From NCBI GenBank assembly GCA_944326455.1, contig CALVEA010000004.1, positions 32,305 through 96,304 of the forward strand: a DNA stretch of 64,000 nucleotides. Direction: 5' to 3'. The DNA comes from Candidatus Gastranaerophilales bacterium (GTDB taxonomy: Bacteria > Cyanobacteriota > Vampirovibrionia > Gastranaerophilales > Gastranaerophilaceae). Position 1 is the first letter of the stretch, and each line of letters opens with the position of its first letter. Position numbers and translations under genes: made by a program. Shown piece after piece: positions 55,756-62,066 of the stretch. The notes under the pieces are model-generated. The model worked only from the letters and a program-made list of their open reading frames with translations. It was not told the origin of the DNA and did no database searches.

Positions 55756-57522
55756 TTATAACTTTGCTTCCTGTTTTTTAAACTGCATATCATACAATTT
55801 GTGATAATGTCCGTTTCCTATAGACATAAGCTCATTGTGGCTTCCGAGTTCAACGAGTTCACCTTCGTTGATAACTGCGATTTTATCGGCATTCTGGATG
55901 GTAGAGAGCCTGTGAGCAATGACAAAAACGGTTTTATCTTTCATCAAGTTGTCAATGGCTTCCTGAACAATAGCTTCGGACTGATTATCCAGCGCAGAAG
56001 TCGCCTCATCAAGAATGACAATCGGAGCATCTTTTATGAAAGCTCTTGCTATAGCGATTCTTTGTTTCTGACCTCCGGAGAGCAAAACGCCGCGTTCTCC
56101 GATGTATGTTTCAATACCATCATCAAGTGTTGAGATAAATTCTTCTAAACAAGCATTTTTTATAGCCGCATTTAGCTCTTCTTCTGTTGCACCGGGTTTA
56201 CCCATAAGAATATTTTCTCTTATAGTTCCTGCAAAGAGGAAATTGTCCTGAAGAACAATTGAAATATTATCTCTAAGGGATTCTATCTTGTAATCTGCAA
56301 TATTAATTCCGTCAATTTTAATTTCGCCCTGCTTTATCTTATAGAACCTTGGAATAAGATTAACAATGGTAGATTTGCCGCCGCCGGAATTCCCGACCAG
56401 AGCGAGGGTTTCACCTTTTTTGACATTAAAGCTGATATTTTTAAGGACAGGGACACCTTTTTTGTATTCAAAAGAAACGTTATCAAATTCAATATTATTT
56501 TTAAGATTTTCAAAAGTGAGAGCATTTGGTTTATCAATAATATAAGGTTTGGCTTCAAGGTTTTTCATAACCCTTTCGAGCGCAAGGAGCGAAGTCTGCA
56601 TACCTTTAACATTGGTACCGAGTCCTTTTACCGGAGTATAAAGCATAATAAGCGCCGTAATAAAAGAAACAAAGTTCCCGCTTGAGATTTCGCCGGTTTG
56701 AATCAAATGACTGCCGTAACCTATGGCAAAACCGATTCCTACAGAGACAATGACATGCATTAAAGGAGAAATTGTTCCGGTTCTCTGGGTTATTTTTATT
56801 CTCAACTTAAACAAGTTATCAAGCTGTTTGGAGAACTTTTTATTCTGAATATTGTATAAATTGTAGGCTTTGACAACCTTGCTTCCGTTATAAGCCTCGT
56901 TGTAGGAGGTGATTATAACCGCATTTTCCGATTCTGATTGATTGGTTACGGATTTAATCCTTGATTTAACTTTACTAAGCGGTACAATTGCAAGTAGAAG
57001 CATAACAATAGCAATTATTGAGAGCTGCCACGAGTTGTAAATTAAAACTCCGATTAAGGATATAGAAGAAAATACTCTGGAGACAATGGTCTTTATGCTT
57101 CCGAGCAAACCTTTGCAAGCGGAATCTGCATCATTATTAAACCTCTTAAGACTGTCGCCCGAGGTTTTTGTATCAAAATATGCGGAGCTTTTGTGCATAA
57201 GCTTGTTGTATAAGGCACGTTTGAGGTCGTTTGTTACTTTGAAAGTAACCCAGTCATTCATATAGGTGGAAGCATAATTCAAAATCCCTTGTAATGAAGT
57301 GAACAGCACGATAAGAAGGGGAATATACCATGGAGACTGCATATTTTTTTCGACCATAACAACATCCATGTAAGGCTTGAGTGAAAGAGCAATTACGGCA
57401 TCAAGGCAGCCTATAGGAATAGCCAAACCCAGCGCCAGTAATGCCCGTCGCCAATAAGGTTTAATAAATGGAAATATCTTTATGTAATTATTAAGAGTTT
57501 CATTATTTTTTATAAAATTCAT
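55756..57522 (-). CDS. MsbA-like ABC exporter, paralog 2
   Basis: GNSGGGKST, LSGGQKQR, ILDEATSALD; translationally coupled to the polysaccharide operon. Confidence 0.93.
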   Translation of the reverse strand: MNFIKNNETLNNYIKIFPFIKPYWRRALLALGLAIPIGCLDAVIALSLKPYMDVVMVEKNMQSPWYIPLLIVLFTSLQGILNYASTYMNDWVTFKVTNDLKRALYNKLMHKSSAYFDTKTSGDSLKRFNNDADSACKGLLGSIKTIVSRVFSSISLIGVLIYNSWQLSIIAIVMLLLAIVPLSKVKSRIKSVTNQSESENAVIITSYNEAYNGSKVVKAYNLYNIQNKKFSKQLDNLFKLRIKITQRTGTISPLMHVIVSVGIGFAIGYGSHLIQTGEISSGNFVSFITALIMLYTPVKGLGTNVKGMQTSLLALERVMKNLEAKPYIIDKPNALTFENLKNNIEFDNVSFEYKKGVPVLKNISFNVKKGETLALVGNSGGGKSTIVNLIPRFYKIKQGEIKIDGINIADYKIESLRDNISIVLQDNFLFAGTIRENILMGKPGATEEELNAAIKNACLEEFISTLDDGIETYIGERGVLLSGGQKQRIAIARAFIKDAPIVILDEATSALDNQSEAIVQEAIDNLMKDKTVFVIAHRLSTIQNADKIAVINEGELVELGSHNELMSIGNGHYHKLYDMQFKKQEAKL

Positions 57523-60707: not shown

Positions 60708-62066
60708 TTAAGAATTTTTCCTTTTCTTTAATAACACAGAATAATATTTTTTAGATTTTTCACTCAAAGTAATTTTAATTCCGAGAATATAAATTATTAT
60801 TTCAGAATTAAACTTCCTAATGGAAAAAATTTTGTTAAGTTTATAATACCGGATTCTCTTTTTTCTCTTTTTTAACTCTTTTGAAGATATTAAATTATAA
60901 GAGCTCAAAGGTTTTCTTTTTGCAACTTTATTAAAAGTATTATCAAAAGCTTCAACTAATTTTCTATCTTTATATGTCCACACATTTTCAATATTATTTT
61001 TTTCTAAAAATTTAACATAATTATCAAAATTCTTTTGATGAACTTTCATCGGAGATTGAAAATCTACACTTTCTAATTGAGATAAAAGATCTTTTTCCAA
61101 ATCAAAATCTTTCTCTGGTATCGAAGGAAACTTATGAAATTCTACAAGTTCTCTTTCTCTTGCATCGTGAGCAATAAGTAAAATTGAATTAGATTTTAAT
61201 AAAGAAGCAATACAACCGTGTAATCTTGTTCCAAAAGTAAAATCTATATTTTCCATAAAATCTAACCACGATTTAGCATTATTGAAAAATATACAATTTT
61301 CATCCAAATACATTTTTTTTAGCATCTCATTAGGTACATCTACTTTAAACTTTTTACCATCATACATGTATCTTAATTCTCTGGATTGCTGCGGTATTAA
61401 ATATGATTTCTTAAATTTATTTGCTTCATTATATAAATACGCAGATAATTCCGGTTTAGCAATATTGAAATTGTAAGAAACTGTAGAATTTAAATCAATT
61501 CTTGTATCTTTAATTTTTAGATTATCTCCATATAAATACATTGAAGGACATCCGATAACATCAACATCTTGTCCCTGTTTAAAACCTAATCTTGATAAAT
61601 AATCTGCCGTTATCTGACCTCTTACACCAACGCTCGCAGACTTATCAAGGACAGCTGAAATAAATTTTCTAATAGTATCATCAATTGCGTAATGAAAATC
61701 TTTTTCGGGCTCATAAGGAGCTCTTACACCAATTCCAATAATATAACAAGGAATTTTAAGTTGTTTTATAAGGTCCGTAAATAGTTCCATTTCTTGTCTC
61801 CACCCATCTCTAAAGGCATCTGCACATGGCAGAACAAAATATTTACAAGTGGCATTAATTCTATCTACATATTTCTTGTCAAAAGTAAATGGCATATAGA
61901 TTGTTTCAAACACATTCTTTTTATTAACAGATAAGGTCTTATAAACACTTGTTGCATACAATAAGTTTCCTATATTAGTCCCTAAAATATTTGCCTTAAT
62001 AAGATCATCATAATCTGGAGACTTAAAAGGGATGATACCACTTCTTATTAAAATCTTAGAACTCAT
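60708..62066 (-). CDS. Polysaccharide pyruvyl-transferase-family protein
   Basis: NIGNLL, IGIGV, SVGVRG, GCPS, FGTRLHG motifs. Confidence 0.82.
   Translation of the reverse strand: MSSKILIRSGIIPFKSPDYDDLIKANILGTNIGNLLYATSVYKTLSVNKKNVFETIYMPFTFDKKYVDRINATCKYFVLPCADAFRDGWRQEMELFTDLIKQLKIPCYIIGIGVRAPYEPEKDFHYAIDDTIRKFISAVLDKSASVGVRGQITADYLSRLGFKQGQDVDVIGCPSMYLYGDNLKIKDTRIDLNSTVSYNFNIAKPELSAYLYNEANKFKKSYLIPQQSRELRYMYDGKKFKVDVPNEMLKKMYLDENCIFFNNAKSWLDFMENIDFTFGTRLHGCIASLLKSNSILLIAHDARERELVEFHKFPSIPEKDFDLEKDLLSQLESVDFQSPMKVHQKNFDNYVKFLEKNNIENVWTYKDRKLVEAFDNTFNKVAKRKPLSSYNLISSKELKKRKKRIRYYKLNKIFSIRKFNSEIIIYILGIKITLSEKSKKYYSVLLKKRKNS

Follow-up and report, generated by a model that had tools for sequence, protein, structure and literature searches.

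Polymers of ribose and ribitol phosphate are vaccine antigens, as in Haemophilus influenzae type b (Hib), and gut bacteria with look-alikes are thought to shape natural antibody to them. The Hib polymerase Bcs3 is a single protein with the domain order CroT-CrpP-CriT-SH3b (8A0C, 8A0M; PMC10299916), in which a phosphatase of the haloacid dehalogenase (HAD) type, CrpP, is joined to CriT, a ribofuranosyltransferase dependent on phosphoribosyl pyrophosphate (PRPP). Its working residues are D386, K548, R679, D680, S707, R708, and E818, with E874 proposed as the base (PMC10299916), and CriT has a phosphoribosyltransferase (PRTase)-like alpha/beta core inside what both structure papers name a new glycosyltransferase fold. 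In the E. coli K18 capsule, CroT and CrpP-CriT are separate polypeptides (PMC10299916). Here, we describe a minus-strand locus in a 64,000-nucleotide stretch of a Candidatus Gastranaerophilales bacterium (G000:C4:32305-96304, referred to below as the window) that encodes a CrpP-CriT-type enzyme beside a separate TagF-family transferase and a polysaccharide pyruvyl transferase. The locus is probably a horizontally acquired, split, Hib-like poly(ribosyl-ribitol-phosphate) operon, whose product would alternate beta-ribofuranose and ribitol-5-phosphate in its backbone.

Locus layout and gene coupling

The reading was extended upstream of the window along the same contig. Within the window, the locus consists of the following features.

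55756-57522, minus strand: MsbA/PglK-like ATP-binding cassette (ABC) half-transporter (Pfam ABC_membrane, ABC_tran)
57519-59558, minus strand: CrpP-CriT-type dual-domain ribofuranosyltransferase, 679 aa from TTG (phmmer against PDB, and AlphaFold2 [AF2] model with Foldseek)
59515-60705, minus strand: TagF-family cytidine diphosphate (CDP)-alditol phosphotransferase, 396 aa (PF04464)
60708-62066, minus strand: polysaccharide pyruvyl transferase family protein, 452 aa (PF04230)
62103-62333, minus strand: 76-aa open reading frame (ORF), an acyltransferase-3-like N-terminal remnant by reading of the sequence (translation NIEFLRIIGCLAIILIHL...)
62317-62982, minus strand: ribulose-phosphate 3-epimerase (Rpe) paralog (PF00834)
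62972-63985, minus strand: Zn-dependent medium-chain dehydrogenase, TarJ-type candidate ribulose-5-phosphate reductase (ADH_N, ADH_zinc_N)
63960-64000, minus strand: 3' end of the TarI gene, leaving the window (protein of 244 aa, IspD-like cytidylyltransferase; NF001183)

Upstream of TarI, outside the window, the contig continues with a divergent TagF-family gene (442 aa) and a 176-aa integrase fragment. A preliminary description of this DNA had reported a gene with HAD and ARDG/VD motifs coupled directly to a TagF-like gene, plus a pyruvyltransferase, and all three ORFs are present at the coordinates that it gives and lie on the minus strand. The genes are tightly packed. The 442-aa gene overlaps the cytidylyltransferase gene by 4 nt, the cytidylyltransferase gene overlaps the dehydrogenase gene by 26 nt, and the latter overlaps the Rpe gene by 11 nt. 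Only 2 nt separate the end of the pyruvyl transferase gene from the TagF-like gene, and the first 4 nt of the ABC gene coincide with the last 4 nt of the ribofuranosyltransferase gene. The likely true start of the ribofuranosyltransferase gene is a GTG at 59528, which yields a protein of 669 aa and is used by relatives and by the 94%-identical protein P0001; the TagF-like gene overlaps this start by 14 nt (44 nt if the TTG is used). A promoter and terminator scan of the operon gave matches at chance level and was uninformative on the transcription unit.

A Bcs3-like enzyme with a separate TagF-family partner

The identity of the 679-aa protein was settled by comparison with PDB sequences, as Pfam returned no domain model beyond chance-level matches and NCBIfam gave weak HAD matches only. 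Using phmmer, residues 18 to 637 matched residues 384 to 1016 of Bcs3 (8a0c), which correspond to CrpP-CriT, with an E value of 2e-58, and the Thermobacillus composti ribofuranosyl transferase 7shg was matched with an E value of 8e-10. The HAD phosphoribosyl-phosphatase domain spans approximately residues 18 to 230 and carries HAD motif I as FDIFDT, while the PRPP-dependent glycan phosphoribosyltransferase domain spans approximately residues 245 to 640, with the "ARDG" motif present as FIARDGY and the "VD" loop as FAFVDLDGSCLTQ (residues 434 to 446). An AF2 model built with 20 homologs had a predicted local distance difference test (pLDDT) score of 87.2. The Foldseek comparison with Bcs3 that the preliminary description had proposed placed 8a0c and 8a0m at the top (E value of ~1e-30; query-normalized template modeling score [TMq], 0.70 to 0.73; ~675 columns), followed by 7shg and then by plain HAD phosphatases. 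That description would have abandoned its reading had the C-terminal domain lacked a PRTase fold; a Bcs3-type fold was matched, although the wording is loose given that the fold of CriT is itself considered new.

Conservation of the active site was judged in the 20-homolog alignment. The nucleophile D386 of Bcs3 corresponds to D23, the HAD motif III lysine K548 to K182, R679 and D680 to R304 and D305, S707 to S332, and E818, which forms the "DD" pair with D680, to D438; all of these are invariant, and R333, corresponding to R708, is R or K. Furthermore, S147-D148 and G206-D207-N208 (HAD motif II/IV) align with Bcs3 and are invariant, and an invariant E496 sits one position away from Bcs3 E874 in the HMMER alignment. 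The preliminary description had remarked that the PRPP loop (VDLDGSCLTQ) deviates from VDxGxxGxxQ. This is true but not unusual, since Bcs3 itself departs from that pattern with VEFWGRGYTQ, to which the loop is nearer than to the VDVGWKGTIQ of 7SHG. As the Cys position is C, G, or R across the subfamily, with D438 and G441 invariant, the deviation is an ordinary one. The CrpP and CriT domains align with those of Bcs3 in the same order and over their full length, including three helical bundles. The protein then ends ~40 residues past the last bundle, where a short three-strand beta tail (residues 648 to 669) replaces the SH3b domain, and the C-terminal amphipathic helices of Bcs3 are missing. 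Sequence and model together support the assignment of this product as a dual-domain PRPP-dependent ribofuranosyltransferase and phosphatase as in Bcs3.

The enzymes of 7SHG and the Klebsiella O antigens (glycan phosphoribosyltransferase with phosphoribosyl-phosphatase, gPRT-PRP) share the two-step chemistry and the domain order, HAD and then phosphoribosyltransferase. However, 7SHG is much more distant than Bcs3 (E value of 8e-10; TMq of 0.34), and these enzymes add ribose within sugar repeats rather than beside an alditol phosphate. A second, distant ribofuranosyltransferase-like protein is encoded elsewhere in this genome (G000:C24:1844-3625, locus L087; 593 aa), beside a methyltransferase gene; it matches 7shg with an E value of 1e-9 and is 26% identical to the protein of the window across the HAD half.

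The 396-aa protein belongs to PF04464 (E value of 1e-60) and matches Staphylococcus epidermidis TagF (3l7i) in the PDB with an E value of 1e-34. Both catalytic histidines are kept, within WHGS... and LIRAHSR, and align with TagF H444 and H584; its length is that of single-addition enzymes. Pairwise phmmer found no match between this protein and the CroT domain of Bcs3 even at an E value of 10, so that the arrangement reads as a modular combination rather than a simple fission of a Bcs3 ortholog. By this comparison CroT and the TagF-like partner are not orthologous, a point that we count as new here. The divergent upstream protein reads as a 478-aa ORF, but a 100%-identical database entry has 442 aa; it has no sequence match in the PDB, and its homologs carry PF04464.

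As in the Hib system, a TagF-family partner and CDP-ribitol genes share the locus with the dual-domain enzyme, and the earlier proposal of a Bcs3-like enzyme beside a separate TagF-like alditol-phosphate transferase is borne out by sequence, fold, and active-site residues alike. The locus differs from the Hib system in that the TagF-like activity resides in a separate protein with no detectable pairwise similarity to CroT, in the absence of KpsC/S/M/T group 2 capsule machinery, in the use of a TarI/TarJ pair instead of the fused Bcs1 to make CDP-ribitol, and in the addition of a pyruvyl transferase. The split itself is not new, as it already exists in E. coli K18, which by description likewise assigns the ribitol-phosphate transferase to one gene and the phosphatase and ribofuranosyltransferase together to another. 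The K18 genes, however, belong to a group 2 (Kps) capsule locus and include a CroT homologous to that of Bcs3.

A scan covering one genome per species found 342 relatives of the ribofuranosyltransferase. The closest are mostly from Gastranaerophilales/Melainabacteria, and others are from Lachnospiraceae, Helicobacter, Anaerovibrio, and more. A four-gene cassette comprising a divergent TagF-like gene, a cytidylyltransferase gene, a TagF-like gene, and a CrpP-CriT gene was present in 9 of the 14 closest loci, and in 11 of the 14 a TagF-like homolog with 54 to 59% identity immediately preceded the CriT-type gene. In L006, where the cassette lies between unrelated genes, the cytidylyltransferase is an IspD+SDR (short-chain dehydrogenase/reductase) fusion with the Bcs1 architecture (Pfam). 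L004 and L009 lack the 396-aa type of enzyme, and their CrpP-CriT protein is paired with the divergent TagF-like protein alone. Our literature searches found no paper on teichoic-like polymers in Melainabacteria.

Nature of the alditol and of the polymer

The TarI protein scores 236.5 bits against NCBIfam NF001183 (D-ribitol-5-phosphate cytidylyltransferase), above the cut-off of 166, and the adjacent dehydrogenase contains the Pfam domains ADH_N and ADH_zinc_N. The Rpe protein matches PF00834 (E value of 3e-54) and NCBIfam NF004076 (176 bits; cut-off, 165); it is only 30% identical to the second copy of this genome, on contig C7, and as the sequence reads, it is a dedicated, locus-specific paralog. 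The IspD-ADH(-Rpe) module is also present in teichoic acid loci of Firmicutes. Position 447 of TagF is Pro in glycerol-phosphate transferases and Gly in ribitol-phosphate transferases (PMC10299916); in the 396-aa protein, the motif WHGSMGIKK places a Gly there, and the same motif occurs in homologs that adjoin Bcs1-type genes. With TarI above its cut-off, a TarJ-type reductase, and Gly in place of Pro, the alditol is most likely ribitol.

Several observations weigh against a Hib-like polymer built on ribitol. In the ribofuranosyltransferase, Bcs3 S678 is replaced by an invariant Ala, the position of S884 falls in an invariant APHGQ stretch without Ser, and the SH3b polymer-binding domain, which Bcs3 needs, is absent from the 669-aa protein. 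The failure of the TagF-like enzyme to match CroT counts in the same direction, as does its best curated match, the glycerol-phosphate transferase TarF, which it matches far below cut-off. The Gly at the TagF P447 position is obtained only through a one-residue insertion, and the assignment therefore depends on that alignment. The TarJ-type reductase reaches no curated NCBIfam cut-off, the locus-specific Rpe could instead supply a xylulose-5-phosphate route, and sister genomes couple orthologous TarI and Rpe to a different, extended-SDR reductase. Finally, two paralogs of the ABC protein are encoded in the genome, and adjacency is no proof of function.

The missing SH3b domain bears on a different product, namely a plain poly(alditol phosphate) made by the TagF-family enzymes, with CrpP-CriT adding ribofuranose solely as side branches or a cap, either on that chain or on another glycan. 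Dual-domain ribofuranosyltransferases (7shg) were originally described for O antigens, whose sugar repeat includes a ribose residue, and there are two TagF-family genes in the locus. Two genomes of the same genus (G013 and G019) have TagF-like genes at the same site without a ribofuranosyltransferase. Such a product is nonetheless unlikely in our judgment, because the protein is far closer to Bcs3 (E value of 2e-58) than to the O-antigen-type 7shg (E value of 8e-10), and because the 396-aa enzyme has the size of a single-addition enzyme, unlike the polymerases TagF or TarL. In addition, the minimal cassette of the closest relatives consists only of these transferases and a CDP-ribitol synthase, and L004 and L009 combine the CriT-type gene with a single TagF-family gene.

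If the chain does alternate, its alditol might still be something other than ribitol, either glycerol, from CDP-glycerol made elsewhere, or a pentitol such as arabinitol, made via xylulose-5-phosphate. The TarF match would fit the former, for which a TagD-like cytidylyltransferase is present on contig C9, and a dedicated Rpe paralog would suit a demand for xylulose-5-phosphate. Against this stand the TarI score above the curated ribitol-5-phosphate cut-off, the absence of Pro from the glycerol-pocket position, and the finding that close homologs of the TagF-like enzyme adjoin Bcs1-type IspD+SDR fusions, which are built like the CDP-ribitol synthase of Hib. We therefore think it improbable that ribitol is replaced. 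The site itself varies between genomes: L089 (G013:C42) has TarI-like, extended-SDR reductase, and Rpe genes above the orthologous ABC gene, and L090 (G019:C3) has TarI-like and extended-SDR reductase genes with an AraD-type L-ribulose-5-phosphate 4-epimerase gene. These reductase and epimerase pairings suggest that the CDP-pentitol made at this one hypervariable locus differs between genomes, and the G013 and G019 genes count toward a non-ribitol alditol here.

The pyruvyl transferase

The 452-aa protein scores 68.2 bits against Pfam PF04230 (cut-off, 25.3). Its AF2 model (pLDDT, 88.9) has a GT-B-like fold, and the fold search returned generic GT-B glycosyltransferases only, which does not confirm the chemistry. 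No sequence match was found in the PDB. Its placement with CsaB and other PF04230 enzymes is one of family membership by profile; the CsaB model itself was matched weakly (E value of 0.004).

The genomic context of seven homologs (33 to 55% identity) was examined. Six of them sit in ribitol-type teichoic acid gene sets, and the seventh stands alone. The Brochothrix homolog overlaps a 1040-aa TagF-like gene, the Salinicoccus homolog is near TarI-TarJ-TagF-like genes, and a homolog on a metagenome contig is found with LicD and Bcs1-like genes. The Rummeliibacillus and Lederbergia homologs lie in full wall teichoic acid loci with TagGH, and that of Anaerofustis is in an operon of pyruvyl transferase, TarI, TarJ, and TagF-like genes. 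Chemical precedent exists in the polymer of Nocardiopsis metallicus, a poly(ribitol phosphate) in which every ribitol bears a 2,4-pyruvate ketal (review, PMC6801904). In our literature searches, no enzyme was found to have been assigned to the pyruvylation of ribitol teichoic acids. The preliminary description had proposed a pyruvylated polymer; the PF04230 family and the context of six of the seven homologs strengthen this proposal, and we infer that the polymer is probably pyruvylated.

The Brochothrix thermosphacta pair (L098 5784-10243), composed of the 1040-aa TagF-family gene and the pyruvyl transferase gene, lies in an apparent prophage with holin, lysin, and tail genes, and may represent a phage-borne teichoic acid modification.

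Export and attachment

The product of 55756-57522 scores 532 bits against the MsbA model TIGR02203, below the cut-off of 602, and its clade was found in only some relatives. Orthologs with at least 54% identity lie directly below glycan genes in six genomes. In G013 and G019 these are TagF-type cassettes; in G022, a fusion of a family 2 glycosyltransferase (GT2) and a pyruvyl transferase with thiamine pyrophosphate (TPP) and SDR enzymes; in G008, three GT2 genes; in G031, a GT2-like gene; and in L075 (UBA2855), acetyltransferase and CriT-type genes with two family 8 glycosyltransferase (GT8) genes. ABC flippases of lipid-linked glycans are represented by PglK and by Helicobacter Wzk. Profile searches of the genome found no KpsC/S (PF05159) and no ABC-2 permease (PF01061), which rules out the exporters of group 2 capsules and of wall teichoic acids; a group 2 capsule was rejected on the same grounds. 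Given the operon overlap, the lack of an ABC-2 permease, and the position of the orthologs below glycan cassettes, the overlapping ABC gene appears to be the best flippase candidate for the polymer.

MsbA-like paralogs are found at 51855-53732 and 55756-57522, 2 kb apart and 51% identical, with a third on contig C3. The 51855-53732 copy is the type found in nearly all relatives (51 to 53% identity to the query), and 55756-57522 falls in an accessory clade associated with glycan cassettes.

Were the ribose and ribitol-phosphate glycan assembled on a protein such as flagellin inside the cell, no lipid carrier or exporter would be required, and the ABC gene would be there as a bystander. A flagellin gene was found within 8 kb in 5 of 80 related loci, another lies on the contig analyzed here, and the minimal four-gene cassette of the relatives contains no export or initiation gene. 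However, the five flagellin-linked loci are all distant (33 to 34% identity), and the close cassette loci have no flagellin nearby. Since the linkage is confined to distant homologs, flagellin glycosylation is unlikely here. On this contig, flagellin is encoded past the integrase fragment, at a distance of >8.6 kb and on the other side of unrelated genes, and the last gene of the operon is a translationally coupled ABC gene with orthologs that lie below glycan cassettes in other genomes. A protein-bound glycan is accordingly the reading that we credit very little, and we return to a lipid-linked polymer that would be exported.

To our knowledge, all characterized teichoic acid and group 2 capsule systems export their products via ABC-2 exporters. 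The locus shares with the Gram-positive ribitol wall teichoic acid pathway (TarI, TarJ, TarF/TarL, TagGH) the TarI/TarJ-type synthesis and the TagF-family transferases, and the genome holds one LytR-CpsA-Psr (LCP) transferase as well as one Wzy_C/WaaL-like protein. It differs in its host, which is a diderm relative of cyanobacteria, in the absence of a TagGH-type ABC-2 exporter, and in the insertion of ribose by a CriT-type enzyme.

Proposed pathway and significance

In the pathway we favor, Rpe, the TarJ-type reductase, and TarI would convert pentose phosphates to CDP-ribitol. Priming of the chain on an acceptor is probably the task of the divergent 442-aa TagF-family enzyme. The CriT-type domain would then transfer ribose-5-phosphate from PRPP to the terminal ribitol, the HAD (CrpP-type) domain of the same protein would strip the 5-phosphate, and the 396-aa TagF-like enzyme would use CDP-ribitol to place the next ribitol-phosphate on the chain. 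The donors, acceptors, and linkages of these steps are predicted from the enzymes named. Pyruvate ketals would be put on by the pyruvyl transferase, most plausibly at ribitol, and the MsbA/PglK-like ABC protein would carry the product, presumably linked to a lipid carrier, across the inner membrane. Attachment could follow through either the single WaaL-like ligase or the single LCP transferase of the genome.

The core of the locus is a new instance of an established enzyme system. What is unusual is the host lineage, the non-Kps, non-ABC-2 export context, the partner that is not CroT, and the teichoic-acid-linked subfamily of the pyruvyl transferase. We raise only as a tentative possibility that a gut commensal displays a pyruvylated Hib-like polymer, with the PF04230 protein representing a family for pyruvylation of ribitol teichoic acids and with export through an MsbA/PglK-type ABC protein rather than an ABC-2 exporter. 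The E. coli K100 antigen cross-reacts with the Hib capsule, and a pyruvylated Hib-like polymer, if present, could do so as well. The machinery resides in the widespread gut Gastranaerophilales on a mobile, recombining island, and such bacteria may therefore be one more possible source of these antigens. Two leads follow, a candidate enzyme family for a chemically known modification, the pyruvylation of ribitol teichoic acids, and an alditol-phosphate polymer built in the cytoplasm that, since the genome has no ABC-2 exporter, seemingly depends on an MsbA/PglK-like transporter.

Acquisition and strain variation

The preliminary description had called the locus more AT-rich than the rest of the sequence. 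This applies to three genes, with GC contents of 26.2% (HAD-transferase), 28.9% (TagF-like), and 27.1% (pyruvyl transferase), compared with a genome mean of 35.7% (standard deviation, 2.6% in 2-kb windows), where 13 of 944 windows fall below 28.5%. Among the neighbors, the Rpe and reductase genes have 32 to 33% GC, the TarI and second TagF-like genes have 35%, and the ABC gene has 37%. Two further observations, the integrase fragment and the mosaic identity of the locus to that of a sister strain, back the horizontal acquisition that was suspected from the composition.

In the two genomes of the same genus, the same site above the orthologous ABC gene (80 to 84% identity) is occupied by integrase genes and by other TagF-type cassettes, none of which encodes a ribofuranosyltransferase or a pyruvyl transferase. 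These cassettes and the low GC content of the three genes make the AT-rich module look like a later arrival in an alditol-phosphate locus that was already in place; the 76-aa fragment would be its scar. This ORF (62103-62333) breaks off after what reads as the initial membrane helix of an acyltransferase-3-type O-acyltransferase. It is kept in the sister strain, where it is called as 70 aa, and is probably a recombination scar.

The sister strain, of the same species but from another metagenome, has a collinear locus (L002 1-11000 versus L083 1837-12833) in which blocks of ~100% nucleotide identity alternate with blocks of 74 to 92%. The pyruvyl transferase gene is wholly identical between the two strains, and the 74 to 92% blocks fall in the reductase gene, in the 3' portion of the TagF-like gene, and midway through the CriT-type gene. 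To judge by the alignment, this mosaic identity is the pattern of a recombining surface-antigen locus. The ratio of nonsynonymous to synonymous substitution rates (dN/dS) between the strains was 0.12 for the ribofuranosyltransferase gene and 0.14 for the TagF-like gene. A decayed remnant was ruled out by these values, by the intact ORFs, and by the same gene order in three other metagenome contigs.

A shared C-terminal tail and a second alditol-phosphate system

A tail of ~30 residues, FS[IV][KR]N...[HK]K[IV][IV]x[IL][LF]G[IL]K[IV]x[FIL], ends otherwise unrelated cytoplasmic glycan enzymes of the Gastranaerophilales, including CriT-type proteins, two pyruvyl transferases, GT8s, and an SDR. It occurs in the window at 57519-57650 and 60708-60830, and also in G000:C7:57145-59394, L075 9970-11978, and L091 11376-12332. 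In this genome, 3 ORFs carry it versus 0.7 expected, and all three encode glycan enzymes. The tail was found in 111 of 120 CriT-type homologs. Its motif ILGIKITL was present in 1 of 120 members of the pyruvyl transferase family, the one in the window, and for this reason the tail looks grafted onto the pyruvyl transferase. It forms three short beta strands in the AF2 model and may be a tag for docking to a membrane, an exporter, or a complex.

A second alditol-phosphate system is located at G000:C9:5987-9459 (L088). It encodes a 701-aa TagF-like and Caps_synth fusion, and its neighbors are a cytidylyltransferase-GFO/IDH fusion, a GDP-mannose-dehydratase-like gene, and GT2, GT8, and GT4 genes.

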